IMG/VR virus record: IMGVR_UViG_3300031088_000782
Coordinates: 160,001-224,000 of that record
Source of the DNA: a virus
Lineage: Duplodnaviria; Caudoviricetes
Length of the DNA: 64,000 bases
Reading direction: 5' to 3' (one strand)
This document shows, piece by piece, positions 3,806-26,366 of this stretch. The notes below the pieces were generated by a model. It was not told where the DNA came from. It saw nothing but the letters and a program-made list of their open reading frames with translations, and searched no databases. The position numbers and the translations under genes are program-made. The stretch's first letter is position 1. The number at the start of each line of letters is the position of its first letter.

Positions 3806-3806
3806 C

Positions 3807-6259: not shown

Positions 6260-6364
6260 TTGAACAAAGTTAATTCTGTTTGTTATTGTAATGAACCAGA
6301 TGTGTGTTGCGTTGCTCATAATAATCATAATTCAGAGATTCATAAAGGATGTATTTTAAGGTAA
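6260..6364 (+). CDS. Small Cys/His-rich ORF (34 aa)
   Basis: TTG start after AGAGGG; MNKVNSVCYCNEPDVCCVAHNNHNSEIHKGCILR. Confidence 0.45.
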   Translation: MNKVNSVCYCNEPDVCCVAHNNHNSEIHKGCILR

Positions 6365-6449
6365 TTTTGTTATTATTAATAAAATAAGTTATGGATATAT
6401 ATGTTAGAATTAAAATATTGGAAAAGTTCGACTAGTTTCAAAATAAGAA

Positions 6450-6497
6450 AGATAAGGTGACACAATTTTAAAGAATATTAGTTGTGTCACTTTATCT
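6450..6497. terminator. Inverted repeat / probable terminator
   Basis: AGATAAGGTGACACAA ... TTGTGTCACTTTATCT. Confidence 0.6.
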
Positions 6498-6572
6498 CTT
6501 TATCCTTGATCTTTTTGGAATAATTCATTAATTATATCAGTTAATAATTTTACTCTCAAAAGGACGGATAAA

Positions 6573-7163: not shown

Positions 7164-7217
7164 ATATTATTTAGAAAAATATAATATATTAATATTATTT
7201 AAATTAGGAAAAAGAAA

Positions 7218-8138: not shown

Positions 8139-9567
8139 ATATCATATAAGCGATTCAGGTAAAGTAGTCATTTGTCGTGCAACTAAAACTGTTTGCCCAA
8201 AAGAAAATTTTGACAGTATTGAAGATGCTGAAAATTTTAAAGAAACTCTATACAATAATACTATTCCAACTATGTCTAAACAGTCCAATAAGGGACTTAG
8301 GGAAGCTGAAAAGTATTATGGCGGTAAGTTCCTCACTTATCATAATATATCGCTTGAAAAAGGCGTAGAAAGCGTTTTAGATGATTTGAAAAAGATAGGG
8401 AACCCATTAATTGTTGGCGGGGCTGTAAGAGATTCGTTTGTAGGATCAGAAAATAAAGATATAGATATCGAAGTTCATAAAACAGATATAGACACACTTG
8501 TTAAAACATTGAAAAATGATGGATATATAGTTGATGAAGTAGGAAAACAATTCGGTGTTCTCAAAGTTTCTAAAAAAGGTGTTGTGAATGACTTAGACAT
8601 ATCTGTTCCTCGTAAAGAAAATCGTTTAGGAGCAGGTCATCGATCTTTTAATGTTGAAATGGATGAAAATATGACCGTTCAAGAATCTGCGGAAAGAAGA
8701 GATTTCACTTTCAATGCTGTCATGTATGATCATACAAGAAAAGTTATCATCGATCCTTCTGGTGGAAAGAATGACTTAAACAATAAAGTCATTCGTCATG
8801 TTTCTGAGAAATTTTCTGAAGATCCTTTAAGAGCTTTGAGAGGATTTCAGTTTGCAGGTAGATTTGATATGACTGTTGCTCCTGAAACAGCAACTTTATG
8901 TAAAAAATTGAGAAATGAATATGAACACTTGTCAATAGAAAGGGTGCAAGAAGAGTGGGGTAAATTCTTCACTAAAAGCGCACACCCAGCAAAAGGAATT
9001 CAAGCTTTAAAAGATATGGGATGGAATGACACTATACCCGGACTTCAAAAAGCATTAGACAATTCTTTTACAAAAGAATCTCTGAATAATCTCCCTACTG
9101 TCAGCAAGCAGAATAAAATAATTTTCGGATCTGCTGCTATCGCTCGAAATATGAATAATAACGAAAGAAAAAGTTTTATCTCTTCAACAGTCATTGGAAA
9201 TAAAGAGCAATTAAAAACTTATACTCTTAGCAGTTTTGACAATAATGAAGCCAGAACTTCTTATGAAAGAAAAAAAATTGCTAAAAAACTTGAGAAAACA
9301 GGCTTTACCTTTAGAGATTATCATAATTTCTCTCAAATGAATAATGACAGCGAAGGTGTTAAATTAAGTGAGAAAGCTGTTGCTGAAGGTTTAGCGGATG
9401 GCCCTGAAAAAGATTTGATTGCTGGTAAAGATATTTTTTCTTTGACTGATAAAAAACCTGGTCCTTGGATGGGTAAATTATTGAATGAAATAAGAGACAA
9501 ACAGTATCAGGGTGCTTTTTTAAATAAAAATGAAGCAATGATGTTTGCAAAAAGTAGAATACAGTGA
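8131..9567 (+). CDS. cca: CCA-adding tRNA nucleotidyltransferase (class II) with shared N-terminal tag
   Basis: VGGAVRD..DIDIEV, RRDFTFNA, EDPLRALRGFQFAGR, ERVQEEW; N-term MTKYHISDSGKVVICRATKTVCP. Confidence 0.88.
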   Translation: MTKYHISDSGKVVICRATKTVCPKENFDSIEDAENFKETLYNNTIPTMSKQSNKGLREAEKYYGGKFLTYHNISLEKGVESVLDDLKKIGNPLIVGGAVRDSFVGSENKDIDIEVHKTDIDTLVKTLKNDGYIVDEVGKQFGVLKVSKKGVVNDLDISVPRKENRLGAGHRSFNVEMDENMTVQESAERRDFTFNAVMYDHTRKVIIDPSGGKNDLNNKVIRHVSEKFSEDPLRALRGFQFAGRFDMTVAPETATLCKKLRNEYEHLSIERVQEEWGKFFTKSAHPAKGIQALKDMGWNDTIPGLQKALDNSFTKESLNNLPTVSKQNKIIFGSAAIARNMNNNERKSFISSTVIGNKEQLKTYTLSSFDNNEARTSYERKKIAKKLEKTGFTFRDYHNFSQMNNDSEGVKLSEKAVAEGLADGPEKDLIAGKDIFSLTDKKPGPWMGKLLNEIRDKQYQGAFLNKNEAMMFAKSRIQ

Positions 9568-9634
9568 TATAATAGTTTTAATCAACAATTGACGAATATA
9601 TTTAATAATATTTTTGAATAAATCGTCAATTTAT

Positions 9635-9721
9635 GGAAGTGTGGCTGAGTCCGGTTTAAGGCGTTCGTCTCGAAAGCGAAAGTAGGTAACACTACCGCAG
9701 GTTCAAATCCTGTCACTTCCG
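9635..9721 (+). tRNA. tRNA-Ser(CGA)
   Basis: GGAAGTG/CACTTCC acceptor, TTCGT-CTCGAAA-GCGAA, long variable arm, G discriminator. Confidence 0.92.
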
Positions 9722-9766
9722 CATAATTGTTGTTGATAAATGATTTTATAAAGTGAGGATCTAACT

Positions 9767-9961
9767 ATGATTAACAAAGATTATAGAAAAACTGTTTATT
9801 TGTCTTTGGAAGAAAGAAAATCTATTGCAGATGAAGCTTTAAGGAAAAGCGGGTTCTCTTTTGAAGAATTGAAAAATCAATCTAAAAACAGACGATTTGA
9901 AACATTGCAAGCTAAACTTTCTTGGATGGTTATTTCAGCATACAAAAAACAGTCAAGATGA
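9767..9961 (+). CDS. Small hypothetical protein
   Basis: SD GAGGA; 64-aa ORF. Confidence 0.55.
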   Translation: MINKDYRKTVYLSLEERKSIADEALRKSGFSFEELKNQSKNRRFETLQAKLSWMVISAYKKQSR

Positions 9962-10045
9962 AAATTAAAAAAATAAGATATAATTTATTTAGTTTTATTT
10001 GACAAAATGTGATATAATTAAATAAAATGAATATAAATGTATTAA

Positions 10046-10118
10046 GCCCTTATAAGCTAATAGGATAAACTACCTCTCTCCTAAAGAGGATTTTTGGGTT
10101 CGAATCCCAATGAGGGCA
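10046..10118 (+). tRNA. tRNA-Arg(CCT)
   Basis: GCCCTTA/TGAGGGC acceptor, CCTCT-CTCCTAA-AGAGG, TTGGG-TTCGAAT-CCCAA. Confidence 0.88.
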
Positions 10119-10162
10119 CAATATGACAATTGCAATTTTTATTGGCGGGAGGTAAGATTATA

Positions 10163-10453
10163 ATGAAAAAAGTTCGAGAGGACATGAAGCCAATACCTTC
10201 GCCTTCTTTGCCGAAAATTTCTGAAATGACTAAAAATGATGCTAAAATAGCTATTGAAAAATTTTTAGTTGAATTCGAAAGTGTTATTGAAAAAAATCAC
10301 AAAAGAAACAAAAAGGCGCTCAAATATTGTATTCTTTGTGGAATTCGCAAAGGGTTTCTCATGTCTTGCGGAAGAAAAAATGTCAAATGTGCTTCATGGT
10401 GTCCAAGACCTTATTGGGAGATTGACAAAAGCGGAAATTATATTAAACAATAA
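10163..10453 (+). CDS. Hypothetical Cys-containing protein
   Basis: SD GGAGGT before ATG 10163; CxxC...C..C..WCP pattern. Confidence 0.6.
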   Translation: MKKVREDMKPIPSPSLPKISEMTKNDAKIAIEKFLVEFESVIEKNHKRNKKALKYCILCGIRKGFLMSCGRKNVKCASWCPRPYWEIDKSGNYIKQ

Positions 10454-10586
10454 TTGATAAAAATTTTCAAAGAAACACCAGTTAAATAATGATTAATTTC
10501 AATAAAGTTTGATATACTTATTAAAATAAAACTAACAATTATTTTTTAAAGCAATATGTAATAGATTCATTTATAGAAAGGCTACA

Positions 10587-10793
10587 ATGATGGCAAAAGT
10601 AACTTTTTCCGAAACAGAAGGAAAGCAGCAGAAGTATTCTTATACAGTGGATTATACTCTTCCTAAAGGATCATGGGATGCACGAGAAGTGCCTTCTGAG
10701 GTAGTTCAAGAGCTTGAAGCTGTTGTTCAGTCAGCCGATTGCCCTGATTTCATGTATTCACCAAGTGGAAATGTTTTAGTAACAGTTAGCTAA
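10587..10793 (+). CDS. Small hypothetical protein
   Basis: SD AAAGG; 68-aa ORF followed by a long hairpin. Confidence 0.65.
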   Translation: MMAKVTFSETEGKQQKYSYTVDYTLPKGSWDAREVPSEVVQELEAVVQSADCPDFMYSPSGNVLVTVS

Positions 10794-10820
10794 AAACAAA
10801 ACAATTAAAATATTAAATTT

Positions 10821-10876
10821 CAGGATAGGGACATTAATAAGTTTTATGGCTTTGACTTATTAATGTCCCTATCCTG
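10821..10876. terminator. 22-bp perfect inverted repeat
   Basis: CAGGATAGGGACATTAATAAGT / ACTTATTAATGTCCCTATCCTG. Confidence 0.7.
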
Positions 10877-10910
10877 CTTCATCATATAATTAAATAATTG
10901 ATATAATTAT

Positions 10911-11378
10911 ATGTCGATGAAGATATCTTACAAAACAATTTTAAAGAAACAGGAGCAAATTTTGTCAATTTTCAAAAGAAAACACCAAGAAGTCAAATAT
11001 AAAGATAACCGTTTCATCAGGAAAGAAAGAAAACTTTTTTCTGCCTATATTGAAATCGAACCGAAAATAGAAAATGCAAAAACTGGATACACAGTGAGAT
11101 ATTTTGAAGACACCGTTACCAAAGGATGGGAATCTTGCTTATACCGTCAAGGAAGCGAACGAATTAAATTAGCTAATGACCAAATGGTTTATAAAGGAGT
11201 TATCGAAATAAGGGCAAAAGATAAAGAAACTCTTCACGAAAGAATAAATAAAGTTATGGCGAATTCGAGTGAAGAAGCAGAAGTATCTTATAATCCCAAT
11301 AAACAAACTTTTTTATCTCGCACAACTCAACGATTTATCAAAATATCCTCTCAAAAAGAAGCAAATACTCCAGTATAA
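10911..11378 (+). CDS. Hypothetical basic protein
   Basis: 155-aa ORF, no recognised motif. Confidence 0.65.
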   Translation: MSMKISYKTILKKQEQILSIFKRKHQEVKYKDNRFIRKERKLFSAYIEIEPKIENAKTGYTVRYFEDTVTKGWESCLYRQGSERIKLANDQMVYKGVIEIRAKDKETLHERINKVMANSSEEAEVSYNPNKQTFLSRTTQRFIKISSQKEANTPV

Positions 11379-11472
11379 AAGCTCAATATTGATTTCATAA
11401 CAAATTTATGTTAAAATAATTGTGTAGTCATATTTCACAATGTTGATAAAATTTAATATATGTCTACATGAT

Positions 11473-11546
11473 GCCTCCATAGCTCAATTGGATAGAGCGT
11501 CTGACTTCGGATCAGAAGGTTGTGGGTTCGAATCCTACTGGAGGTG
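11473..11546 (+). tRNA. tRNA-Arg(TCG)
   Basis: GCCTCCA/TGGAGGT acceptor, TCTGA-CTTCGGA-TCAGA, GTGGG-TTCGAAT-CCTAC. Confidence 0.93.
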
Positions 11547-11672
11547 CAATGAATTTAATCGAGAAAGAAAACAGAATCGCACTTTTATTAAAATTATATT
11601 AATTTCATTTTTGAAATAAAAGAATAAAAATAAATAATAAGTTCGACAAATAAATCCATACGGAGATGAAAT

Positions 11673-12302
11673 ATGGAACAAACGAAAAAAGAATCAATAA
11701 ATGCACGAAGAAAAGTATTAAACAAAAGAAGAGCAGAAGCATTCTATCCTACACTTACAAAAGGGAAACACAAAATTCTTACAGAAATTTTCGACATTCC
11801 TCTTTATTACACAAAACGAGATGAAGAAACAGACATCGTTCTTTATGGAGAGGGATACAACAGATTCCCCCTCACTGTTATACCTATCAAACAGGCGATT
11901 GCATCACATATTTGTACATACTTACAGAATTCTCATGAAAATGCCTTAGAAGGACTTCTGCAGTCTTTTATAGTCAGAGGGTATACAGATAATAACACAG
12001 ATTTGATGAACAGTTTAAACAAATTTTCAGAAAATATTTACAAGCCCTCTTCTTCTGAGAGTAGCGTTGAATCAAATCCTCTATTGCATTGGCAAGACGG
12101 ATTGAGAGTTTCATACAAACCAAGCAAAAACAGCGCTTATACCAATCGAAACATCAGTGCAGAACAATTTGTATTGTCTAAAATCGGGGAATACATTCTT
12201 CAAGAACGACCTGAACTTATGAAAGATATGTTCACTTCTGAAGAAGAAAACATTTTGACGATTTTCAAAGATTCATCAAGATACGATAAGATAGACAAAT
12301 AA
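11673..12302 (+). CDS. Hypothetical protein
   Basis: SD GGAG; 209-aa ORF. Confidence 0.7.
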   Translation: MEQTKKESINARRKVLNKRRAEAFYPTLTKGKHKILTEIFDIPLYYTKRDEETDIVLYGEGYNRFPLTVIPIKQAIASHICTYLQNSHENALEGLLQSFIVRGYTDNNTDLMNSLNKFSENIYKPSSSESSVESNPLLHWQDGLRVSYKPSKNSAYTNRNISAEQFVLSKIGEYILQERPELMKDMFTSEEENILTIFKDSSRYDKIDK

Positions 12303-12407
12303 TAATTCAAGTTTCACAAAAACGATATAATAAAAGGGCAGAATCGAAAATCTGTCCTTTTATTATGACAAAATTCAACAAAAAGCAAAAACAACAAAGG
12401 TAGGAAA

Positions 12408-13382
12408 ATGGTTAAAGAAATAGAAGAGAAGACTTTTGATTACAAAAACGTCAGGCTGTTAGCTAAAAAATGCATTATCGAATCTCGATCACAAGCAGAC
12501 GTAACTGTTAGATTAGGAAACAGAGTTTTCAATAGCCCAGCATTGCCTGCAAATATGTCTACAATTATTGATGAAACCCTTGCACAATGGTTAGCTGAAA
12601 ATAATTTTTTCTACGTGATGCATAGATTTGATGTAGATCCTGTTGAATTTGTCAAAAATTTCAACAGCAAAAAACTTTTCACATCTATTTCATTAGGGAT
12701 TAAAGAAATAGATTACACACATGTTGACAATCTTAAAAAAGAAAACCTATCTCCTGATTACATTACTATTGATGTTGCTCACGGACATTCTGATTATGTG
12801 ATCAAAATGATTAAATACGTTAAAAACCATCTTCCAAAATCTTATGTTATTGCGGGAAATGTGGGTACCGCAGAAGGTGCTCTTGAATTAGAAGAAGCGG
12901 GGGCAGATTGTTTGAAGATTGGGTTGGGACCTGGTTCAGCATGTTTAACTTCACCTAACACTGGTTTCGGAACACGAGATCATCAATTATCCTCTATACT
13001 TAAAATTTCTGAAGTTTTAAAAACCGCAGATTTGATCGCTGATGGCGGAATTAGAGAATATGGAGATATTGCCAAATCAATAGCTTTTGGTGCTGATATG
13101 GTGATGATCGGTGGTATGTTTGCAGGTCATGACGAAAACCCCGGAGATCTTATCGAAGATGAAAATGGTGAAAAGTTTAAAATATTCTTTGGTAGTGCAA
13201 GTGAGCACCAAAAAGGCGAATCAAAGCATGTCGAAGGAAAGAAGATGCTTGTTTCATACAAAGGATCTATCTCTTCAACTTTGCAAACAATTACAGAAAA
13301 CTTGCAATCATCTGTTTCTTATGCAGGAGGGAAAGAGCTTAAAGATTTAAGAAACGTAGACTATGTTTTAGTTGATATGTGA
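12408..13382 (+). CDS. guaC: GMP reductase
   Basis: [61 protein letters not shown]. Confidence 0.92.
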
Positions 13383-13483
13383 AAATTTTGACAAAATTGA
13401 TATAACTTAATAACAATTTTCAAAAAGGCTGGTGCAATTTAAATAAAATTTTGCACCAGCCTGAATTTATAAGGAGAGAAAAA

Positions 13484-14227
13484 ATGGACACTTCGAAAAT
13501 TGAAACTAAACCTGCTTTTGCCTATACAGAGACAGAAAACAAAACCAATACTTTCACTGGTGGAAAGCCATTCATCAATGATGATTTCAAATTTCCTTAT
13601 GATAAGGACGGTAATCCACTTGTGTTCTTCTGCCAATTAGATTTAAGTGAGGTGGATCAAAGAATAATCAATCATCTTCATCTCCCTGAAAGGGGATTTA
13701 TACAGTTCTATCATGGTGGAGACGATCTTATGGGAATGGACTTTGATTCAGACAATTATATGGACAATAGTGTTTCGAAAATATTATATCTTGATAAAGC
13801 GTTTGATGAAGATTTTGATATGCCAAAAGAATACAAAGAAGACATGACCGATTATTCTCCTTTGGAAAATTCTATCAACAGAGACAATAGAAGGATTTTT
13901 TATAAAGGCGAATATATTGATATGCTTCCTTTTCCAAATTCTAACGATAATCCAGCTATCACAGAAGAAGACAGCTACGGAGAAGAGTATATGGATTATT
14001 ATGAAAAATCTAACGAAAAATATTATGAATTGTATTTAGGAGGATATCCACATTTTGTTCAATGGGACTTTAGGAACAAAGATCGCGAAATGAGCCTTCT
14101 TCTTGGCTCTGAAAGCGGTAACACTATAATGTGGGGAGATACAGGGGCTGGAGGATTTTGGGTTCCTCAGAATAATCTTGAGGAGCAAGATTATTCGCAA
14201 TCTTTCATCTTCTGGGATTGTGGATGA
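13484..14227 (+). CDS. DUF1963 (YwqG-like) protein
   Basis: GGKP, PLVFFCQLDL, LPERGFIQF, LGGYPHFVQ, MWGDTG, WDC. Confidence 0.85.
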   Translation: MDTSKIETKPAFAYTETENKTNTFTGGKPFINDDFKFPYDKDGNPLVFFCQLDLSEVDQRIINHLHLPERGFIQFYHGGDDLMGMDFDSDNYMDNSVSKILYLDKAFDEDFDMPKEYKEDMTDYSPLENSINRDNRRIFYKGEYIDMLPFPNSNDNPAITEEDSYGEEYMDYYEKSNEKYYELYLGGYPHFVQWDFRNKDREMSLLLGSESGNTIMWGDTGAGGFWVPQNNLEEQDYSQSFIFWDCG

Positions 14228-14239
14228 TTAATAATTTAT

Positions 14240-14294
14240 TAATGAACAGGATAATAGTCGCTAATCTACTTAAAAGGTGCTATCCTGTTCATTA
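14240..14294. terminator. Inverted repeat after DUF1963 gene
   Basis: TAATGAACAGGATA / TATCCTGTTCATTA. Confidence 0.5.
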
Positions 14295-14398
14295 AGTAAA
14301 AAATATGACTTTTATTCAATCGCAGTAGTTCTACCAACTATATCTTTGTTTTAATTTGGTAGAATAAGAATTATCAAATAACTTCAAAACCAAGATAG

Positions 14399-15124
14399 GT
14401 GAATTTTATGAACATTTCTGAATCAAAACTTCCTGAATGGTTGAAAAAAGAACTTCCTGAACCTCAACTTCCATCAGTAATTTCATGGACAGAAGAAGAT
14501 GGATATATAGTTTTTGATGAAATTCATGAAGAAACAGACAATTTTGAAACTCTTGAAGAGGCATATGATTTTACTGAAAATTATCTTAAAACTGAAGTAA
14601 TTTTTGATGAATCAATTCCAGAATTAAACGAAGAAAATAATAATAATTTTTCAAGAATGCTATTTGGTACTCCTGATGATCGCGGAAATTCAAGATTGCT
14701 ATTTTCCTCACCAGATAAACAAAAAATTGAAGACCTTGAAGAAGTATACGAAAATTTTCTCAACCTCGCAGAAAAATATTATAACAACAAAAACGACTTC
14801 ATGACAGCTTATGATTTTGTTGATACACATCCTGCTTTTTGGGTAAAACTCTTAAAAGACAAAGAAAAAACATTTCTCTGGGAAACTGAATCTCATTGTA
14901 TAAAAATCTGGTCAATGCCGATTAAAAACGATGATAATATGTTTTGGGCTTTGGAAACAGGTATGCACATTGATCCAGATTATGTTGAACATTATCACGA
15001 CTGGCGAATTGATGCATCTGGTAGTACTATTGAAGAAGCTTATATAAATCTTGCTGCAAATATTGATAAATACTACAATCTTGATGGAACTGAAAAAGAA
15101 ATAGAGACAGATGACGAAGAATGA
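14399..15124 (+). CDS. Hypothetical acidic protein
   Basis: 241-aa ORF overlapping the next gene. Confidence 0.7.
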   Translation: MNFMNISESKLPEWLKKELPEPQLPSVISWTEEDGYIVFDEIHEETDNFETLEEAYDFTENYLKTEVIFDESIPELNEENNNNFSRMLFGTPDDRGNSRLLFSSPDKQKIEDLEEVYENFLNLAEKYYNNKNDFMTAYDFVDTHPAFWVKLLKDKEKTFLWETESHCIKIWSMPIKNDDNMFWALETGMHIDPDYVEHYHDWRIDASGSTIEEAYINLAANIDKYYNLDGTEKEIETDDEE

Positions 15125-15599
15125 CGAAAACTCAAAAAGGAATGACATTCTGACATGGGATGAAACTTTTATATCTATTGCACATGTTGTCAAACAACGT
15201 TCAAAAGATCCAGTTACTCAAGTAGGAGCATGTATTGTATCTTCGGATAACAGAATTTTGACGTTGGGATACAATGGTGCTCCCAACGGTTTTGATGATG
15301 ATGACTTTCCTTGGGGCAAAACAGGCGATGAAATTTCGACAAAATATCCTTATGTTGTTCACGCTGAAAGAAATGCCATTTTGAATTTCAGGGGTTCTTT
15401 AAGAGAATTCAATAACGCAACCATTTATGTTACTCTTTTTCCTTGCAATGAATGCGCAAAAGAAATCATTCAAACAGGAATAAAAGAGGTAGTTTATGAA
15501 AAAATGCCTGATAAAAGAAAAACATCAACAGAAGCGTCTATTATCATGTTCGAAAAAACAGGTGTGAAAATACGAGAAATTGGCAGTTATGAAATATAA
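15111..15599 (+). CDS. dCMP deaminase
   Basis: RSKDP.TQVGACIV, GYNG, VVHAERNAI, TLFPCNECAK. Confidence 0.93.
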   Translation: MTKNDENSKRNDILTWDETFISIAHVVKQRSKDPVTQVGACIVSSDNRILTLGYNGAPNGFDDDDFPWGKTGDEISTKYPYVVHAERNAILNFRGSLREFNNATIYVTLFPCNECAKEIIQTGIKEVVYEKMPDKRKTSTEASIIMFEKTGVKIREIGSYEI

Positions 15600-15688
15600 C
15601 AAACATTTTTAAAAATAATTTTGAAAAGTTTTTTAATTTTCGATCTTTTAAATAAAAATGTGGTATACTGATATTAGAAACTAAACAT

Positions 15689-15762
15689 CGCGGGATGGAG
15701 TAGTTAGGTAACTCGTGTGGCTCATAATCACAAGATCGGGGGTTCAAATCCCTCTCCCGCCA
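15689..15762 (+). tRNA. Initiator-type tRNA-fMet(CAT), second copy, atypical anticodon stem
   Basis: CGCGGGA/TCCCGCC with C1:C72 mismatch; TGTGG-CTCATAA-TCACA; D-arm identical to the 3618 copy. Confidence 0.86.
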
Positions 15763-17600: not shown

Positions 17601-18296
17601 ATGAAAATAAAATATATTGGAAGGTTTGTTTCATCAACATTGATTGTAGGCTTGTTATTATCAGGATGCACAAGTAACAATACACCTGATGACGAACAAA
17701 CTGCTACCTCTGCACCAACTCAGCAGGAAACAACAGAACAGTCAATTAACAAATTCTTCACTGACTATTACACAACATGGATCAACAATCCTGATTCAGT
17801 AGAAGATTCTATTAAAGTTGACGAAGCTTTTATGGAAATTTTCGGGCCAGAAAATTATGAAGGTTTATATGATACTGCGAATGATCCAGAAAAATTATTT
17901 AAAAAATTAGATGATAAACAAATTAAGGAATTAGCAGATAAACTTGAAGAAATTAATAAAATTTCTAAATTTTATGATTTCCGTAAAACTTCTGATAAAG
18001 ATAGAGCTTATGTTAATTTAACGGCTATAACTTATTCTCAAATGCTTCAAGGAGCAAGCGGGAAAAAAGTTAATGTAACTGTTTCTTCAAATGATAATTT
18101 TGCAATAAAAGATAACTCAATAACAATTCAATCCTCTGATGTAATTTTTGAATTAGACGGAACAAGATTACCTAATAGCAATGAAGAATCAGGAATTGAA
18201 AAAACAAAACTTAATCGTGTTGATGGAAAATGGAAAATTGATGCGTCTGACATGATGAAACAAGTAAACAAAAAGCTCAAAGAAAATAAAAAGTAA
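17601..18296 (+). CDS. Putative lipoprotein
   Basis: Signal peptide with lipobox LLSG-C, then Thr/Gln-rich linker. Confidence 0.75.
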   Translation: MKIKYIGRFVSSTLIVGLLLSGCTSNNTPDDEQTATSAPTQQETTEQSINKFFTDYYTTWINNPDSVEDSIKVDEAFMEIFGPENYEGLYDTANDPEKLFKKLDDKQIKELADKLEEINKISKFYDFRKTSDKDRAYVNLTAITYSQMLQGASGKKVNVTVSSNDNFAIKDNSITIQSSDVIFELDGTRLPNSNEESGIEKTKLNRVDGKWKIDASDMMKQVNKKLKENKK

Positions 18297-18310
18297 TTTT
18301 AATCTTTAAA

Positions 18311-18353
18311 AACTGTGGGTGAAGATTGATTAAGTTGATCTTCACCCACAGTT
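18311..18353. terminator. 16-bp hairpin whose right arm overlaps the next promoter
   Basis: AACTGTGGGTGAAGAT / ATCTTCACCCACAGTT. Confidence 0.65.
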
Positions 18354-18363
18354 CTGATATAAT
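18335..18363 (+). promoter_or_regulatory. Promoter for the SRP RNA-tmRNA unit
   Basis: TTGATC (18335-18340), 17 bp, TGa-TATAAT (18358-18363); predicted start coincides with the hairpin 5' end. Confidence 0.75.
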
Positions 18364-18367
18364 GATA

Positions 18368-18459
18368 ATGTAAGAAGCTCAGGTGTGATTTTTTACTCAA
18401 CGGTTCAGGTTGGGAACAAAGCAGACCAAGTAGAATTGAACAGGTTGGACTTCTTACAT
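18368..18459 (+). ncRNA. ffs: Small bacterial-type SRP (4.5S) RNA
   Basis: Long hairpin closed by ATGTAAGAAG/CTTCTTACAT; apical GGT-TCAGG-TTG-GGAA-CAA-AGCAG-ACC reproduces the helix-8 symmetric loop and GNRA tetraloop; 4/1 asymmetric loop CAAC/A. Confidence 0.85.
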
Positions 18460-18463
18460 ATAA

Positions 18464-18813
18464 GGGGATGCATTAGGTTTCGACTTATGATCTGATTATT
18501 AAAAAGCAGGTAGCCATTAAGAAGTTGGCTTTAAAAAATCTTAAACAAATAATTGCAAACGCAAATAAAAACGCTTACGCACTAGCTGCCTGAGCCGTTC
18601 ATATTAGATATATTGTTCTCGATACTAATATGAACGTCATTTTAAGAGAACACTTTACCTGAACTAAGTTTCATAAGGATAAAGTAAAAGAAACTAAACT
18701 AAATATAATTTTTGGCAACAGTTGAAATATTTAGTTAATAAACAGTTGCGAAACCTGTAATTCTTTTTAATATGACAATCGTAAGGACAGGGGTTCGACT
18801 CCCCTCATCTCCA
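18464..18813 (+). ncRNA. ssrA: tmRNA
   Basis: 5' GGGGATG..TTTCGAC; 3' GGGGTTCGACTCCCCTCATCTCCA; tag frame 18555-18593 ANANKNAYALAA-stop. Confidence 0.93.
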
Positions 18814-18848
18814 CGATTATTTTTATTTCAAAAACAAGGAGAGCTATT

Positions 18849-19571
18849 ATGAAAAACATAATTGATGAATCAGAAAAAATAGTTGTCCTCACTGGAGCAG
18901 GAGTTTCCACAGAATCAGGAATTCCAGATTTTCAACAAAGAGATGAAAACTGGGAACATGACGTTGATAGGGAAATAGCAACATCTATATGGTATTTCAA
19001 GCAAGAACCGCAAAAATTTTGGAATATTTATAAAGAAATTTTTGGCAGTAAAGCATATGCCAGACCTAACAGATTCCATTATTTTTTAGCCTCATTGCAA
19101 AACAATCATGATATCACTATTGTCACACAAAATGTTGATGGATTACATACAAAAGCCGGAAGCGAAAAAGTTATCGAATCTCATGGGAATCTCAATTATG
19201 TCATATGCTTAAATAAAAATTGTAGACGAAAATACCCTTATGAAAAGTTTTCGAATGATACTCTTCCTACATGCCCTTCTTGTGGAAATATCCTCAAACC
19301 CAATGTGTCTTTATTTGGGGAAGGGATTAATGGATTCTCCGAGGCTAGGGATCTGATCATTGATTCTGATTTGTTAATAATCGCTGGGACAAGCCTAAGA
19401 GTTGGGCCATTTAATGAGCTTCCTCTCTTGTCTCAATACTACTCTCCTCATACGAAAAGATTATGGATAAACAAAGAGACTCCTGAAGAGATAGGCTTAA
19501 TGGAAGAACTGACTTTTCATAAATCATTCAATGGAACCTTTGAAAATTTCATTGACACCTATCATCAATGA
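18849..19571 (+). CDS. Sir2-family NAD-dependent deacylase
   Basis: LTGAGVSTESGIPDF, VTQNVDGLH, HG, C..C/C..C Zn module, GTSL.V.P. Confidence 0.92.
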   Translation: MKNIIDESEKIVVLTGAGVSTESGIPDFQQRDENWEHDVDREIATSIWYFKQEPQKFWNIYKEIFGSKAYARPNRFHYFLASLQNNHDITIVTQNVDGLHTKAGSEKVIESHGNLNYVICLNKNCRRKYPYEKFSNDTLPTCPSCGNILKPNVSLFGEGINGFSEARDLIIDSDLLIIAGTSLRVGPFNELPLLSQYYSPHTKRLWINKETPEEIGLMEELTFHKSFNGTFENFIDTYHQ

Positions 19572-20839
19572 ATCAGCAAAATAAATTGTTAAACTGTATT
19601 TATGAAAAGTTTGACAAAAATAATGGAGGAAAAGTGCCTAAGCAAGAAAAAACCGGAAGTAGACCAGAATTTGTTGATTCAATTGTAGAAGTATTGAAAA
19701 CAAACGGAACACTTCTCACCGGAATAGCTGTAGTCCTAATCATTCTGACAGGTCTCACTCTTGTCAATAGTCCTGAACAGTGGTGGATAATCGGTGCAGC
19801 AGTCCTTCTTTTTGGCGCAATAATATTTCTTTTCATGAACGCAAGAGTAGTGATAAAAATTTTTGTTGTCTCTATTATAAATATTTTAATGGCTTCCGAA
19901 TCTTTTAAGTTTGGTAGTGCATTTGATCAATATAGCATAGGTGGTCTCATATGGATGTGCGGAACTTTCTTTACATTCTTTATTTTGATTGCTTATAGTT
20001 ACCTAACAAACAGCGGAGCAAGCCGATGGGGATCTATCGGAGTTTCAAGTGTGTTTGGATATGTTTCAACATTCTTACTATCTATGGTGTTTGAATTAGA
20101 TGTAAAAATATCTACTTGTATAGGAGTTCTTATCTCCGGTTTAATTTTCACTTACCTTTATAAAGGAACAAGAAAAACTCGATACTCTAAATTTCGTATG
20201 CCTGCCAATATATTTGATGAAAAAATTGAAGAAAAATTAGTTAAAAGCGCAGAAGAATCCGGGTGGAATATTACTCCATTACCTCATAAAAAAGATTCAA
20301 CATCAGGCGGATTTTTAATTTGGGATGAAAGAGCATACTACCTTTATCCTATTGATATGGATTCTCCGTTTAGCAATATTGGAAGAAAAACTTTTAGACT
20401 AGGGTATTCCAAAAAAGATATCAATCCTTGGCTTCTTAATTTAGCGTTCAAAGAGCCTCCACTATGGCGTTCAAGAGGGGCTAATATAAATGTTGTTCTT
20501 TTAGACATGAACAGTAAAAATGGCTTAGATCATAAAATTATCGGAGTAAGCCTCCCTGACTCAAAGAAAAAACTTCCCATAGGTATTTTCCCAGCAAAAA
20601 TAATTAAAACAGAAAAAGACAGCAAAGTCAGCAAACTTTTTGACAAAATTGATTTGGAAATGTCTCCCTTCACGACTGATCTTAATGAAAAACAGAAAGC
20701 TGCCCTTGGTAGAATAAATAAGACAGAAGAGGATGAAGAAACAGAAATTGTTGATGAAAACAAATCAACTTCTGAAGAAGAATCAAACTCAACCGCCGTA
20801 GAACAGAATCCCAAGGAGGATAACATCGAAAATGATTGA
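19568..20839 (+). CDS. Multi-pass membrane protein
   Basis: About six hydrophobic segments in the N-half, soluble C-half; overlaps both neighbours. Confidence 0.75.
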   Translation: MNQQNKLLNCIYEKFDKNNGGKVPKQEKTGSRPEFVDSIVEVLKTNGTLLTGIAVVLIILTGLTLVNSPEQWWIIGAAVLLFGAIIFLFMNARVVIKIFVVSIINILMASESFKFGSAFDQYSIGGLIWMCGTFFTFFILIAYSYLTNSGASRWGSIGVSSVFGYVSTFLLSMVFELDVKISTCIGVLISGLIFTYLYKGTRKTRYSKFRMPANIFDEKIEEKLVKSAEESGWNITPLPHKKDSTSGGFLIWDERAYYLYPIDMDSPFSNIGRKTFRLGYSKKDINPWLLNLAFKEPPLWRSRGANINVVLLDMNSKNGLDHKIIGVSLPDSKKKLPIGIFPAKIIKTEKDSKVSKLFDKIDLEMSPFTTDLNEKQKAALGRINKTEEDEETEIVDENKSTSEEESNSTAVEQNPKEDNIEND

Positions 20840-22310
20840 TTTCGTATCTTTACACACTCACACTCACAGCTCACTGCTTGATGGGTTTTCAACAGAAGAT
20901 GACTATCTCACCAAAGCACAACAACTTGGGCAAAGAGGTTTAGGAGTTTCCGATCATGGAAATCTTCATACTATATACAGCTTTTTGAAAAAATCAAAAG
21001 ATATGGGAATGATAGGTGTTCCAGGATGCGAATTTTATGTTGCTCCAATCAATCCTGATGGAGCAAAAAGGAAATCTTCGGTATTCTATGGACCAGGCGG
21101 AAAAAAATCCGAAAAATACGATGTTTCTTCTAACGGAGCTTATCTTCACCTTACAGTGTGGGCATACAACAATGTAGGATTACACAATCTTTTTAAACTT
21201 TCTACAGCCTCAAACGACCCTACACGTTTTTATCAGAAACCAAGAATTGATTTTGATCTTCTTGTCGACCATTCAGAAGGTCTCATTGTTTCTACTGGAT
21301 GCCCAAGCTCTGAAATCAGCACACGTTTTCTTCTGGGACAAGACGATAAGGCTTATGAATACGCTGGAAGATTAAAAGAGGTCTTTAACGATAGATTATT
21401 TGTTGAGGTCATGGATCACAATATGCCCATTGATCTTGAAAAACAACTTCTCCCTAAGCAACTTGAGTTATCTAAAAAAATGGGAATCCCTCTTTTAGCA
21501 ACAAATGACTGCCATTATGCGGAAAAAGAAGATTACATTTCTCATGAAGAAATGCTTTGTGTTCAGTCAGGAGCAAAAATGAGTGACAGCACATATGATG
21601 AAGGTGGACCAAGATTTGCATTTACAGGTCACGAATACTATCTCAAATCTGCTGAAGAAATGGATAAACTATTTCCCCAGAAGGATTTTCCAGATGCTTT
21701 ATCAAACTCTGTTGCTATTACCGAAATGGCATCAGATATCAGTCTTGAATTCAACCCTAACTTAAAGCCTAAACCAGTCTTACCTCCTGAATTTTCAACA
21801 GAAGTAGAATATTATAAACATCTTATTCAAACAGGATTCAAAGAACGTTATGGAAATGCCCCAATCGAAGTAAAGAGAGAAGCTGTCAAAAGGAACAAAA
21901 AAGAATTCGACGTTATCTACTCATCTGATTTCATTGGGTATATGCTTGTTGTGCGAGATTACATTCAATTCGCACGAGATAATTTTTCAACAAAAAACGT
22001 GCAAGATGAAATAATTGCACTTGGCGTTGGCAGTGGGAGGGGATCAGTTGGTGGAAGTATTCACGCCTACGAATTAGGTATTTCTGAAGTCGATCCAATC
22101 AAGCATGATCTCATTTTTGAAAGATTCTTGTCAGCCGGTCGTGGAGCTACTTATTTGTTAGAATATGATGACGGAAGTACAGAAGAGATTATTGTATCTG
22201 ACAAAAAGAATGTTTTATCAGATGATAGCGAAGAAGCCTCTCGAAAATACATTCATCAACTTCAAGTGGGCGATAAAATAGTTGTAGATGATGATACTAA
22301 TAATGAGTAA
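20832..22310 (+). CDS. dnaE: DNA polymerase III alpha, N-terminal fragment (PHP domain to FERFL) with 54-aa extension
   Basis: FVSLHTHTHSSLLDG, SDHGN, ATNDCHY, GSGRGSVGGS, DPIKHDLIFERFL. Confidence 0.92.
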   Translation: MIDFVSLHTHTHSSLLDGFSTEDDYLTKAQQLGQRGLGVSDHGNLHTIYSFLKKSKDMGMIGVPGCEFYVAPINPDGAKRKSSVFYGPGGKKSEKYDVSSNGAYLHLTVWAYNNVGLHNLFKLSTASNDPTRFYQKPRIDFDLLVDHSEGLIVSTGCPSSEISTRFLLGQDDKAYEYAGRLKEVFNDRLFVEVMDHNMPIDLEKQLLPKQLELSKKMGIPLLATNDCHYAEKEDYISHEEMLCVQSGAKMSDSTYDEGGPRFAFTGHEYYLKSAEEMDKLFPQKDFPDALSNSVAITEMASDISLEFNPNLKPKPVLPPEFSTEVEYYKHLIQTGFKERYGNAPIEVKREAVKRNKKEFDVIYSSDFIGYMLVVRDYIQFARDNFSTKNVQDEIIALGVGSGRGSVGGSIHAYELGISEVDPIKHDLIFERFLSAGRGATYLLEYDDGSTEEIIVSDKKNVLSDDSEEASRKYIHQLQVGDKIVVDDDTNNE

Positions 22311-22337
22311 TATAAACAACAAAGGAAGCAAGGTAAA

Positions 22338-23420
22338 ATGAGCGAAGAACAATATGTAGAGCTGTATAAAAAATACAAGCCTCAAACATGGGACGATCTT
22401 GTTGGACAAACGAAGACTGCTAGATCCCTACAGACAGCTGTGGTTAACAATAAAATTCCTACTGCTTTCCTATTTCTTGGTCCGAGAGGAACTGGAAAAA
22501 CTAGTTCCGCGTTTCTTTTAGCTAAATCACTCAATTGCCAAAATCCCATTAAAGGAGGGAATCCTTGCAATATTTGTGAAACATGCATAAGTATTGACGA
22601 AGGTTCACAAATTGGTATCAATTATGAATCAATGGCAAATCGTGGCTCTGTTGATGATGTAAGATCTATTGTACAGAAAGCAAAACTTAGTCAACCTGTG
22701 AAAAAACAAGTATGGATTCTTGATGAGATACATAATCTTTCCAAAGCAGCTTTTGACGCTCTTCTTATCCCTCTTGAAGATAAAAACATGCCATCTCTTT
22801 TCATTTTTTGTTCAACAGAAGCTGATAAAATTCCTGCGACAATTACCTCCAGAGTCCAACAGAGAAGGCTTGTATTGGTTTCGCCAGAAGATATGCTTCC
22901 CTATTTACAAAACATTAGAGACAAAGAAAATCTTGACTGCGGAGAAGAAGATCTGACAGAAGCAATCAGGCAGGGGAGAGGATCGGTTAGAGATACCCTG
23001 AGTGCCCTTGAATCGCTCTTATCAACCGGAGAAACCACTTCTTCGTTCGGTGGTGCCATGCTGGAATCTATCGCCTCACACAGCCTTCCAGACGCTCTCA
23101 AAGTCACTGCGGATGCTATTCACGAAGGATACGATGGAAGAGATTTGGCAGAACAACTTTTCTCTGATTTGAGGGATCTTCTATTACTTGTTTCAGGAGT
23201 TGACAAGTCAGTTGCAGGAACAATAAATGTTTCAGATGTGAGATCTGTTGCGAAAGGTTTAATAGGAAAAACAGGAATCGCAATAGTAGCAGAAGAAATA
23301 GCTGACGCAATAACACATATGACGCTTGGATCTGATTCAAGAATACATTTTGAAATTGCATTAGTTAAATCAATCACTAAATTAAATAAACTTCAAAAAG
23401 CAGTTGATGCTAAAAGTTAA
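22338..23420 (+). CDS. dnaX: DNA polymerase III gamma/tau clamp-loader subunit
   Basis: LYKKYKPQTWDDLVGQ, GPRGTGKT, LNC..PCNICETC, ILDEIHNLS, TITSR. Confidence 0.9.
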   Translation: MSEEQYVELYKKYKPQTWDDLVGQTKTARSLQTAVVNNKIPTAFLFLGPRGTGKTSSAFLLAKSLNCQNPIKGGNPCNICETCISIDEGSQIGINYESMANRGSVDDVRSIVQKAKLSQPVKKQVWILDEIHNLSKAAFDALLIPLEDKNMPSLFIFCSTEADKIPATITSRVQQRRLVLVSPEDMLPYLQNIRDKENLDCGEEDLTEAIRQGRGSVRDTLSALESLLSTGETTSSFGGAMLESIASHSLPDALKVTADAIHEGYDGRDLAEQLFSDLRDLLLLVSGVDKSVAGTINVSDVRSVAKGLIGKTGIAIVAEEIADAITHMTLGSDSRIHFEIALVKSITKLNKLQKAVDAKS

Positions 23421-23591
23421 ATTGTAACATAATATAAATTCATAACACTCAAATGCTAAGGAATACGGAAAATAAAACTTCTGTACCCTTAGCATTTATT
23501 GAATTCATGTGATATAAGATATTTAATCTGTTCATGAATTTTTTGATAAGATACTCATGTATAAAATATGTAATAAATAGGAGAGGTTACT

Positions 23592-26366
23592 GTGGCGGAA
23601 ATAAAAACCATTAAGAACATCAAAGTAGTTGCAAGCGGCAGCAACCCTGACGTGGATTCTGACTTCCACACTGCTCATAGAGAAAAAGTTCTTGAATATG
23701 TCACAGATCTTTATGGAAAGAAAAACGTTTCTAATATTGTTACTTTCGGTACGCTTGCAGCTAAAGGTGCTGTTAAGGCGATGTGTACAATTTACAATAT
23801 TCCTTTTGTTCAAGCCGGTAAATTAGCTGCTCTTGTTCCGCCTCCAATTGAAGGCAAAGAATGCACTCTTAATGATATATATGACCCAACAAGTGACCGT
23901 TATGAAGAAGCTTCTGAATTTAGATCTTTTGCTTCTGGTGCTGATTGGGAAAAAATTATTGAAGGTGCAAGAAAAATTGAGGGTAAGAACAAAAGCACAG
24001 GGGTCCACGCTTGCGGGATCATAATCTCAGCTGAACCTTTGGAAGAGGTTATTCCGCTCCATGTTCGACAAACAGATGAGCGAGTAATTACTCAATGGAC
24101 TTATAAAGAATGCGAATCCCTTGGTCTCATTAAAATGGACTTTTTGGGACTAGATACTGTTGACCTTATTCAGAATACGGTTGATTACATTATCAAAAAT
24201 GGAAAAACACCGCCAAATATGGCTCAACTTGTTCACGGCGAGATGGATGATCCTGATGTTTACAAACTTTTCCAAGATGCAAAAACAACAGGTATTTTCC
24301 AATTCGGTTCTGAAATGGTTCAAAACCTTCTGAAACTTGTCAAGCCTACGGAGTTTAATGACCTTGCAGCTACAACCGCTGTGGCGCGTCCTGGGCCTAT
24401 GGGAATGCTCTCACACATTAAATACGCTGACAGAAAGAATGGACGTGAAGAAATTGATTACATTCACCCAGAATTTATTGGCTCTCCATTAGAAGAGATT
24501 CTTAACCCTACATATGGATTGATTGTATACCAGGAGTCCATTATTAAAATTGCTTCTGAAATCGCTGGTATGACTCTTCAGGAAGGTGACGACCTTCGCT
24601 CAGCTATGGGTAAAAAGAAAATGGCTGTGATGATGAGTATGAAGCCTAAATTCTTCGAGGGGTGCCTAAAAAATGGCTATTCTGAAGAGGCTACAACAAT
24701 TCTTTGGGAAACTATTGAGGAATTCGCTAAGTATGGGTTTAATAAAAGCCATTCTGTTGCTTATGCTATGACTTCTTATCAGTCAGCATTTTTGAAGACA
24801 CATTACCCTGTGGAATTCATGGCTTCTTTAATTGCTCAGAATGTTGATGACAAAAAGAAAACTTTGACATTTTTGCGTGAAGCTAAGAGTATGGGCATCA
24901 GCGTTGGAACTGTGGATATCAATTTGTCTGACATTAAAGTCGCACCTGATTACTTGAAAAAGGGGAAAAACGACATTTTGTTTGGAATTTCTGGTGTTAA
25001 ATCTGTTTCCGAAGATATTGCAAAAATCATTGTTGAAGAAAGAAACGCTAATGGGGTTTTTGAATCTGTTCAAGATCTTGTTAATAGATGTGTTCCTTTA
25101 GGTGTTTCTAATAGAGCAATTTACGAGAATCTTGCTAAAGCAGGAGCTTTTGACACTATGGGGGTTAGTAGAAAATCTGTTGTTGAGTCTGTTCCTGACT
25201 TAATGGGTGATGCTAAGAAGAAAACATCTAAAGGTGAATCTCTGTTTGATATGTTTGCTCTTGAGGAAGATCCTTCTGAAATTAACTTGAATGGTGAAGA
25301 ATATGATTATGTGAAGAAACTTCAGGAAGAAGCCAATATGCTTGGTCTTTATCTTACATCAAATCCCCTTGATAATCTTGGCCCTGGCAGTTCAAAATTG
25401 AGGACAAACAATATTAGCAAAATTTTGAAAAGCCCACGAATGCTTACAACAACTATTCTTGGGTCTATTATTGAAATTACCAAAAAACAGAGAAGGCAGG
25501 GAAAATCAATCATTGTTGACATTGATGACGGAACTGATTATATGACTGCTCTTTTGGCTAAAGACATTGTTAAAAATATGGACAAATACAATGCCCAAGA
25601 AAATGTGAAGAAACTCTATCAGAACGGGGAAAACTCTGTATCTACAGATAATAGAGAGTTAGCTGTTAATCCTGAGTATAAGCCTATGGAAGAGCTTGAA
25701 GTTAACAATGTCTATATGATGAATGTGACTTACAGACCTGGTAAAGGAGATAACCCCTATAACGCTAAAATCAATTGGATTAAACCTTTGAAGCTTTCTC
25801 ACAACGGATCTCTCCCTGTGAGAATACGATTCAAAGCTACGAAAGAAAATTTGGACAAAATGAAGAAGCTGTATAAGGCTTTGCCTATAAATTTGGCTCA
25901 AAAACTTCCTGGTGAATACCCTATTCATGTTTCTTTGCATAGCAAATTGACAAAAGATTCTCATACTCTTGATGATATGTACATGTCTGCTCTTCAGATT
26001 ATGGATGAAGATCTTCAAAATGGCGTTGACCTTAAAGAACAATTCGATAATGCTAATAAAAGAGAGGATTCTAATTCTTTGATGGGTGGAAAAAATAAAG
26101 CTCCTTCTAAGAAAAAGAAGAAATCTGCCTCTAAAACAGATGAGCCTTTGAGAGTATGGCCTCCAGAAGGATTTGAGAAAACGCGAAATAATGGCGTTGA
26201 AGCTTTGACGGTTGAAGATATTACTGATGCCATAGAATCTTTAAATTATATAGATACAGGTTTAACTTGTGATAAAAGTCAAAAAGTAGAACTGGCTATA
26301 GAAAAATTCTTAGGTATTGAAAGCTACGATTTTGGAGTTTTTGATTCTTCAATATTGACTGATTGA
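23592..26366 (+). CDS. dnaE: DNA polymerase III alpha, C-terminal fragment with 16-aa N-terminal extension
   Basis: PDVDSDF catalytic motif, GVHACGIII, GLIKMDFLGL, RRSAMGKK-like LRSAMGKK, YGFNKSHS, OB-fold region. Confidence 0.92.
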   Translation: MAEIKTIKNIKVVASGSNPDVDSDFHTAHREKVLEYVTDLYGKKNVSNIVTFGTLAAKGAVKAMCTIYNIPFVQAGKLAALVPPPIEGKECTLNDIYDPTSDRYEEASEFRSFASGADWEKIIEGARKIEGKNKSTGVHACGIIISAEPLEEVIPLHVRQTDERVITQWTYKECESLGLIKMDFLGLDTVDLIQNTVDYIIKNGKTPPNMAQLVHGEMDDPDVYKLFQDAKTTGIFQFGSEMVQNLLKLVKPTEFNDLAATTAVARPGPMGMLSHIKYADRKNGREEIDYIHPEFIGSPLEEILNPTYGLIVYQESIIKIASEIAGMTLQEGDDLRSAMGKKKMAVMMSMKPKFFEGCLKNGYSEEATTILWETIEEFAKYGFNKSHSVAYAMTSYQSAFLKTHYPVEFMASLIAQNVDDKKKTLTFLREAKSMGISVGTVDINLSDIKVAPDYLKKGKNDILFGISGVKSVSEDIAKIIVEERNANGVFESVQDLVNRCVPLGVSNRAIYENLAKAGAFDTMGVSRKSVVESVPDLMGDAKKKTSKGESLFDMFALEEDPSEINLNGEEYDYVKKLQEEANMLGLYLTSNPLDNLGPGSSKLRTNNISKILKSPRMLTTTILGSIIEITKKQRRQGKSIIVDIDDGTDYMTALLAKDIVKNMDKYNAQENVKKLYQNGENSVSTDNRELAVNPEYKPMEELEVNNVYMMNVTYRPGKGDNPYNAKINWIKPLKLSHNGSLPVRIRFKATKENLDKMKKLYKALPINLAQKLPGEYPIHVSLHSKLTKDSHTLDDMYMSALQIMDEDLQNGVDLKEQFDNANKREDSNSLMGGKNKAPSKKKKKSASKTDEPLRVWPPEGFEKTRNNGVEALTVEDITDAIESLNYIDTGLTCDKSQKVELAIEKFLGIESYDFGVFDSSILTD

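Follow-up and report, generated by a model that had tools for sequence, protein, structure and literature searches.

SRP RNA is regarded as a universal cellular housekeeping gene. Helix 8 of this RNA and its GNRA loop bind the M domain of Ffh and speed the assembly of Ffh with FtsY. Genes for tmRNA and tRNAs are carried by huge phages (PMC7162821) and by the Bifidobacterium megaplasmid pMP7017, whose tmRNA is highly expressed (PMC10832533), and mycobacteria contain extra copies of tmRNA and RNase P RNA (PMC9569102). In each of these cases, as at the locus described here, the RNA half of a host ribonucleoprotein is found without its protein partner, in or beside a tRNA island; the element analysed here has a tmRNA without SmpB and an SRP RNA without Ffh. 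None of the three papers (PMC7162821, PMC10832533, PMC9569102) mentions an SRP RNA.

Two further systems resemble the locus in other respects. In the Enterococcus phage phiEf11, ffs is the attachment site (PMC12540744). That phage, which inserts itself into the host gene, has no more than a short identical core, and the likeness consists of SRP sequence in prophage-bearing DNA. In contrast, the gene described here is complete, divergent, equipped with a promoter and deep inside its element, with no integrase adjacent. GOLLD (RF02032) is, like the present RNA, a structured non-coding RNA among phage tRNAs. We know of no cellular housekeeping role for GOLLD, whereas SRP RNA copies an essential cellular RNA.

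Two candidates for a closer comparison were rejected. A Curtobacterium plasmid of 567 kb, pCPAA3, is cited as a tmRNA carrier; no match to SRP RNA was obtained in it, and its DnaE is unsplit and only 34% identical. The Inocle elements of oral streptococci are described as circular, with a gene orientation that switches at origin and terminus and with no mention of tmRNA or SRP RNA. Nearly all genes of our record lie on one strand, unlike those of the described Inocles, and we made no link to these elements, setting them apart by description only.

In the full-text literature searched, the coverage of which is incomplete, we came across no SRP RNA encoded by a phage or plasmid; an earlier mention is possible. 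Within that coverage, the statement of an earlier note on this DNA that no characterised phage SRP RNA was known holds. The RNA family is a known one in a new setting, and this setting is common to other large mobile elements.

The SRP RNA hairpin and its promoter

The window, the whole 64,000-nucleotide stretch of DNA analysed here, contains a match to the Bacteria_small_SRP family (RF00169) that spans the full model (positions 1-97 of 97). Infernal gave it 42.7 bits against a gathering score of 40, only 2.7 bits over the cut-off, with E-values of 7.9e-6 (64-kb window, all 4227 families), 3.3e-8 (local stretch) and 9.3e-9 (309-kb record). The earlier note, which had recognised the hairpin from the sequence alone, had proposed this search, and its outcome is significant by the curated cut-off. 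The window copy has a GNRA tetraloop, an AGG/AGCA symmetric loop and an asymmetric loop of about 4 nt opposite a single A, and all the helix-8 landmarks listed in the earlier note lie exactly where it had placed them, both in the sequence and in the Infernal alignment (Table 1). Its measurements need small corrections: the hairpin is 90 nt long rather than 92, and the closing stem at its base has 9 bp rather than 10. We take the helix-8 core to correspond to the Ffh M-domain binding site of characterised SRP RNAs.

Table 1. Features of the SRP RNA-tmRNA locus, in window coordinates.
Feature	Position	Strand	Description
Perfect 14-bp hairpin, CTGTGGGTGAAGAT / ATCTTCACCCACAG	18313-18351	+	17 nt 3' of the stop of a 231-aa ORF (17601-18296); probably its terminator
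Sigma-70-type promoter	18335-18363	+	-35 TTGATC 18335-40, 17-nt spacer, TG 18355-56, -10 TATAAT 18358-63
Small SRP RNA (4.5S-type, Alu-less)	18369-18461	+	RF00169 match; hairpin proper 18369-18458, 90 nt
Basal 9-bp stem	18369-77/18450-58	+	
Helix-8 (domain IV) core, 45 nt	18391-18435	+	7-bp stem to GGAA tetraloop
7-bp stem	18391-97/18429-35	+	
Asymmetric loop	18398-18401 vs 18428	+	CAAC vs single A
GGU/ACC stem	18402-04/18425-27	+	
Symmetric loop	18405-18409 / 18420-18424	+	UCAGG / AGCAG
UUG/CAA stem	18410-12/18417-19	+	Closes GGAA tetraloop 18413-16
Spacer UAUAA, 5 nt	18459-18463	+	Between SRP hairpin and tmRNA 5' end
tmRNA	18464-18816	+	RF00023, 133.4 bits; ARAGORN tag ANANKNAYALAA

The minimum free energy (MFE) fold of the hairpin has the same architecture at -24.4 kcal/mol (z = -3.1), and none of 200 shuffled sequences was as stable. 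No ORF of at least 60 aa overlaps positions 18297-18848. The SRP-tmRNA stretch is also present on contigs from two other studies, with 2-5 substitutions. Both substitutions within 18335-18461 are unpaired in the MFE fold: 18365 lies past the -10 hexamer and ahead of the start, and 18378 is a bulged base. A search of RNA sequencing runs returned none with this stretch.

The window copy is like the bacterial small SRP RNA (4.5S RNA, ffs, RF00169) of E. coli and Actinomycetota in forming a single hairpin with the helix-8 motifs. Five cellular Actinomycetota SRP RNAs that we sampled have a GAAC or CAAC 5' loop, similar to the CAAC of the window copy, and a CCAGG/AGCAA symmetric loop where the window copy has UCAGG/AGCAG. 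These five score 52-69 bits, compared to 42.7 for the AT-rich window copy, which has a GC content of 40% against 62-68% in the core of the cellular actinobacterial copies. It also differs from cellular SRP RNA in its context, as it lies on a giant mobile element that lacks ffh and ftsY and is joined to a tmRNA under one promoter. By every criterion that can be tested on the sequence, we assign 18369-18461 to the small SRP RNA family.

A promoter scan found 10 of 12 matches to the sigma-70 hexamers plus the extended -10 TG. The predicted start, at about 18369-18371 (6-8 nt past the -10), matches the hairpin's 5' terminus and its first paired bases. Just upstream, the loop and 3' arm of the probable terminator of the 231-aa ORF overlap the -35 hexamer. 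The earlier note had given the hairpin a promoter of its own, TTGATC-17-TATAAT, and had set it 4 nt upstream of the tmRNA. The adjacency stands, at 5 nt (UAUAA), and so does the promoter, but not its private use. In the three closest relatives of the element (L024-L026), whose DnaE N-terminal fragments are 82-83% identical to that of the window and whose gene order and tmRNA tag (ANANKNAYALAA) are the same, a terminator hairpin is followed by the promoter TGATATAAT, which drives the tmRNA directly, 19-44 nt further on. The SRP hairpin is absent from the tmRNA locus of all three. Because these relatives have the promoter and the tmRNA without the hairpin, the SRP RNA of the window sits in the tmRNA leader and the promoter is common to both RNAs. 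The missing hairpin also indicates that the SRP RNA is dispensable, at least at that locus.

The element and its relatives

The window comes from a 309,534-bp IMG/VR record (G000), of which it covers bases 160001-224000; the record is from a phyllosphere (leaf-surface) metagenome and is classed as a provirus. A protein of this record is also on record on a 681,645-bp contig, which indicates that the record was excised from a contig of far greater length. Rfam models found about 65 tRNAs, one tmRNA and one SRP RNA in the whole 309 kb, and no rRNA, RNase P RNA or 6S RNA at or above the gathering score; GOLLD likewise stayed below its gathering score. The tRNA genes are all on the plus strand and lie between about 145,000 and 176,000 of the record (L009, L010 and window 78-15762), mostly in one 15-kb array. 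The bulk of the array is just upstream of the window, and further tRNAs are dispersed among ORFs in the window's first 16 kb.

A Pfam scan of 47 large ORFs of the record identified a set of replication genes: a split DnaE with dnaX between its halves, DnaB, DnaG, GyrA/B, LigA, NrdE, RecG, PIF1 and RadA. The two pieces of DnaE (window 20832-26366) measure 492 aa (PHP/N-terminal) and 924 aa (C-terminal) and are separated by a dnaX-like clamp-loader gene, a layout that is kept across the element family. In some relatives, either DnaE piece contains inteins (Intein_splicing/Hint Pfam matches), and one (L027) has extra genes between the pieces. The same scan found genes of conjugation type, namely a TraG/TrwB-like coupling protein (TrwB_AAD_bind, 31.9 bits; TraG-D_C, 32.1 bits), TcpC (43.6 bits), two secretion ATPases of the T2SSE family, all above their cut-offs, a VirB6/TrbL-like protein whose TrbL match, at 23.8 bits, is slightly below the cut-off of 25.9, and a lysozyme-like hydrolase. 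Coupling protein, TcpC, VirB6/TrbL-like protein and secretion ATPase together make up a Gram-positive-type set of type IV secretion genes, and TcpC was found in three other members of the family as well (G002, G003, G005). Other Pfam families in the record include an RHS protein, PASTA domains and many DUF4379 and Mom-like proteins. The RHS-repeat protein (2123 aa; PF05593, DUF6531) is the product of a polymorphic-toxin-type gene at 226568-232939 of the record (L011:2868-9239). Directly after the tmRNA, at window 18849-19571, lies a gene for a Sir2-family protein (PF02146, E = 7e-40), which has the same position in the closest relatives; in one of them (L025), the tmRNA and the Sir2-family gene are separated by an inserted DUF4379 gene, which may encode a homing endonuclease.

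The virus label fared less well. The Pfam scan found no virion family, RNA polymerase or aminoacyl-tRNA synthetase among the 47 large ORFs. PHROGs gave a single weak match, of unknown function, for 10 large proteins of the record, 8 of which have no Pfam match. The terminase families PF03237 and PF03354 are absent from the record, which covers 309 kb of the 681-kb contig, and from eight relatives. The HK97-type capsid family PF05065 is also absent from the record, although divergent capsid genes could evade such models. The large terminase (TerL) of Streptomyces phage Mildred21, used as a query, found nothing in the element family; it does find four of the contigs discussed below (G017, G018, G019, G020). 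Among cultured phages, megablast found no match, and distant blastn matches were only to the tRNA-like ends of the tmRNA. With conjugation-type genes present and terminase and capsid not found, the viral nature of the contig, which the earlier note had asked to confirm, is doubtful, as is the viral label of the record. On the gene content of the 309 of 681 kb that was read, the record resembles a giant extrachromosomal element of conjugative type more than it does a tailed phage. Its DnaE N-terminal fragment has its best cellular homologues exclusively in Actinomycetota (36-40% identity), and from such best protein matches only, the element is probably associated with an actinomycetotal host.

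The earlier note had allowed that the contig might be an ordinary cellular chromosome, where ffs would be expected. Neither Rfam models for rRNA and RNase P RNA nor PF00448, the model for Ffh and FtsY, has a match in the 309 kb, which bears out on the larger record the note's observation that the window lacks ffh and ftsY, and SmpB was not found in five records tested, this one included. The lack of rRNA, Ffh/FtsY, SmpB and terminase indicates that the record is not a cell. It is true that IMG/VR classes the record as a provirus cut from a 681,645-bp contig, that phage integration into ffs is possible (PMC12540744), and that many IMG/VR contigs start with an SRP RNA fragment, as would be the case if the DNA were a small cellular genome, a host flank or an attachment-site remnant and the SRP RNA simply the cell's ffs. 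We consider this extremely unlikely. The gene lies 178 kb inside the record, complete and with a promoter, in DNA that has about 65 tRNAs in one array, no rRNA, Ffh/FtsY or SmpB in 309 kb, and neither RNA polymerase nor aminoacyl-tRNA synthetase among the 47 large ORFs scanned against Pfam. Moreover, two relatives with terminal repeats (G004, G005) carry an SRP RNA without 16S rRNA or Ffh/FtsY.

The two ORFs that flank the locus had no matches in IMG/VR, but the N-terminal fragment of the split DnaE succeeded as a query, with hundreds of homologues on metagenome contigs, some of them 573-727 kb long. We collected eleven related IMG/VR records, which measure 94-438 kb and in several cases have terminal repeats, direct or inverted; the GC content of the locus ranges from 32 to 56% among relatives. 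Among the family's members are several assemblies of about 0.57-0.73 Mb, independent of one another (the contigs behind P0021, P0023, P0032 and P0047) and obtained from plant, phyllosphere and other samples, and two distinct members (L018 and L028) come from a single phyllosphere run, SRR8867410. If complete, contigs of about 0.57-0.73 Mb would be among the largest plasmid- or phage-like elements. Ffh/FtsY (PF00448) is absent from all 11 related records, and 16S rRNA is absent from the five relatives tested, including the terminal-repeat records G004 and G005.

An SRP RNA is present in 6 of about 13 family members examined. In a 438-kb record with inverted terminal repeats (G004), it scores 40.4 bits and follows a tRNA-Val as a stand-alone gene, with a terminator-like hairpin and a U tract at its 3' end. 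A 420-kb record with direct terminal repeats (G005) has a copy of 37.1 bits, with close copies in two more records (G003, G006); each of these three has a TTGACA-type promoter and abuts a tRNA-Leu. The copy in a 670-kb JGI contig (L019) is a GC-rich SRP hairpin, about 60 nt long and capped by a GAGA loop, which lies 3-5 nt before a tRNA-Arg and adjoins a short RNase P-like RNA. Such RNAs of about 250 nt occur in two of the relatives (L019:2327-2572 and G004:167306-167563), each within about 1 kb of the SRP RNA; they match the full bacterial RNase P class A model at 77.9 and 49.5 bits, respectively, against a gathering score of 100.

Mobile SRP RNAs and the conservation of their fold

Beyond the family, two pattern scans of IMG/VR returned at least 30 and at least 14 SRP-like cores. 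Many of these, among the matches listed, lie at contig ends and have one identical sequence; L172, L178, L222, L247, L270 and other contigs, to all appearance unrelated, begin exactly 68 nt before the same core, GGGTCAGGGGAGGAATCCAGCAGCCC. Since ffs is a known phage attachment site (PMC12540744), the identical contig-end cores are likely to be prophage/host junctions with ffs as the integration site. A scan of IMG/VR with the exact core pattern GGTTCAGG...AGCAGACC had two matches in all, both of them unrelated archaeal SRP fragments located at contig ends.

Other cores are internal to their contigs and lie in tRNA islands. Two contigs of 497 and 372 kb (G017, G018) have copies of 57.7 bits and a distant terminase homologue, a 290-kb contig (G021) has one of 58.7 bits, and three further copies score 47.2 (L386), 42.3 (L306) and 42.1 bits (L379). 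On a 436-kb contig (L351), an SRP-like core directly precedes a tRNA, with a tmRNA 1.8 kb further on. We also observed GOLLD RNAs (RF02032, 157-227 bits) within about 0.5 kb of an SRP RNA or SRP-like core at L306:10491-11427, L386:4390-5348 and L300:1787-2303; these pairs sit inside the tRNA arrays of large IMG/VR contigs, one of them 372 kb long. The smallest versions are on two phage-like contigs, from uncultured relatives of the Streptomyces phages of the Stanwilliamsviridae, whose terminases are 57-63% identical to that of Streptomyces phage Mildred21. There, promoter-driven mini SRP hairpins of about 38-50 nt stand at the head of tRNA clusters (G019:49978-50022, L199; G020:92028-92065, L280), the second of them 6 nt before a tRNA-Gln. 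The terminase ORF of G019 has 1471 aa, which suggests inteins. Six cultured Streptomyces phages of the Stanwilliamsviridae (Mildred21, Tomas, MulchMansion, Wofford, Bmoc and Naboo) lack the SRP hairpin. Among the matches listed and the relatives, mobile SRP RNAs are almost always in tRNA islands, and in several elements (G005/G003/G006, L019, G020) the hairpin ends 0-6 nt before a tRNA. Judged by these matches, SRP RNA is a recurrent cargo of the tRNA islands of large phages and giant elements.

We examined whether the fold is kept in these divergent sequences. Four copies, each folded alone, give the same structure, in which a stem, a 4/1 asymmetric loop, a 3-bp stem, a 5x5 loop and a second 3-bp stem lead to a GNRA loop. 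A MAFFT alignment of four full hairpins misaligned the GC-rich copy, and gapless 45-nt cores and a model-based alignment were used instead. In the three-core alignment (the window and two relatives), 39 of 39 cells are paired, with compensatory changes at 12 of the 13 pairs. A covariance model built on it (R1) turned up further copies; its match in one contig (L029) was a false positive, a plain hairpin without AGCA. Nine mobile-element cores aligned to the model have 97.4% of cells paired and compensatory double changes at 13 of 13 pairs, and slid-partner controls bring pairing down to 36-47%; the three cores were chosen by structure and the nine were fitted to the model, which makes these figures lean toward the structure, and the contrast with the controls is still large. 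The AGG, GNRA and AGCA motifs are invariant in all nine. Because the structure is kept by compensatory changes at all 13 pairs in very different sequences, the fold appears to be under purifying selection.

This pattern bears on two alternative readings of the hairpin. One is that it is a host ffs copy of recent capture, a functionless sequence, neutral or decaying, within the tmRNA leader. Three findings could be read in this way: the hairpin is missing at this site in the three nearest relatives, its spread in the family is patchy, and it scores below cellular copies (42.7 vs 52-69 bits). However, a decaying copy fits poorly with functional motifs that are all intact, a strong promoter directly upstream, a GC content adapted to the element (40%, compared to 62-68% in actinobacterial cores), a stretch kept in three studies, and a fold that compensatory changes have preserved at 13 of 13 pairs in divergent elements. 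We therefore hold this reading to be distinctly improbable.

The other is that the hairpin serves mainly as a structured 5' leader, which would stabilise or guide the processing of tmRNA and tRNA precursors, with its likeness to SRP RNA secondary. A generic leader would have no need of invariant AGG, GNRA and AGCA motifs and a 4/1 loop in nine divergent copies, and one relative (G004) has its copy as a stand-alone gene with its own terminator-like hairpin and U tract. These observations make a leader function very unlikely as the main one, despite the location of the hairpin between promoter and tmRNA, where the relatives show about 20-45 nt of plain leader, and directly before tRNAs in other elements.

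Possible roles of a mobile SRP RNA

With a probability of about 0.65, we favor the reading that the window carries a genuine small SRP RNA gene on a giant, probably actinobacterial element, and that its RNA is made as one transcript with the tmRNA, set free by RNase P and taken up by host Ffh. We infer each of these steps, from transcription through RNase P processing to the binding of Ffh, as well as any gain for the element. The promoter would give rise to a two-RNA precursor with the SRP RNA as its 5' part and the tmRNA after it. Starting at the base of the hairpin, the transcript would need no 5' trimming. E. coli 4.5S RNA is a substrate of RNase P, and here a cut by this enzyme at the tRNA-like 5' end of the tmRNA (18463/18464) would free the SRP RNA with a 5-nt tail, which exonucleases would then trim. 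The recurring layout of an SRP hairpin, a few nucleotides and a tRNA in unrelated sequences supports a 3' processing of the tRNA type.

Once released, the RNA would load onto Ffh through its helix-8 motifs and add to or replace the host's 4.5S RNA pool. As the element has no genes for Ffh or FtsY, the SRP RNA would have to use the host's Ffh, and the strict conservation of the Ffh-contacting loops supports such binding. The SRP RNA may be one item of an RNA-only island for translation support, together with about 65 tRNAs, a tmRNA without SmpB and, in relatives, an RNase P-like RNA. The earlier note had suggested that it might reprogram or replenish the host's SRP, or stand in for an RNA destroyed by host defence nucleases. 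Possible benefits would be more SRP RNA for the element's many membrane proteins, such as parts of its secretion system, independence from host transcription, or modulation of the host's SRP cycle.

The last of these borders on a different proposal, in which the RNA is a modulator or decoy that binds host Ffh and either sequesters it or biases the SRP cycle to the element's needs. Mobile versions run from 93 nt in the window to about 38-50 nt in the two phage-like contigs (G019, G020). All of them keep the Ffh-binding loops, the short ones lack the distal helix, and none is accompanied by Ffh or FtsY. In E. coli, the distal end of 4.5S RNA is required for late GTPase activation. On the other hand, some bacteria have naturally short SRP RNAs that are functional, and the window copy spans positions 1-97 of the 97 in the model and is not truncated. 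A decoy fits the mini versions better than the full-length copy of the window, for which we consider it quite unlikely.

Returning to our preferred reading of a functional SRP RNA that uses host Ffh, a broader form of it is speculative and, as a whole, unlikely. It holds that large phages and giant conjugative elements, mostly seemingly actinobacterial, would routinely carry "half-ribonucleoproteins" (SRP RNA, tmRNA and RNase P-like RNA, with no Ffh, SmpB or RnpA) packed in tRNA islands, freed by tRNA-processing enzymes and capturing their partners from the host. The SRP RNAs, including minis of about 40-50 nt without the distal helix, might then be an unrecognised class of takeover RNAs that reprogram co-translational membrane targeting.

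The finding has practical consequences for the annotation of such elements. SRP RNA cargo will escape pipelines limited to tRNA and tmRNA finders, and an SRP RNA match is no proof of cellular or host DNA when viruses are called and provirus boundaries drawn. The natural size series, from 93 to about 40 nt, lends itself directly to working out which portions of SRP RNA are important. If the copies are active, mobile elements would reach into the co-translational targeting of membrane proteins, a step that had not been linked to them before.
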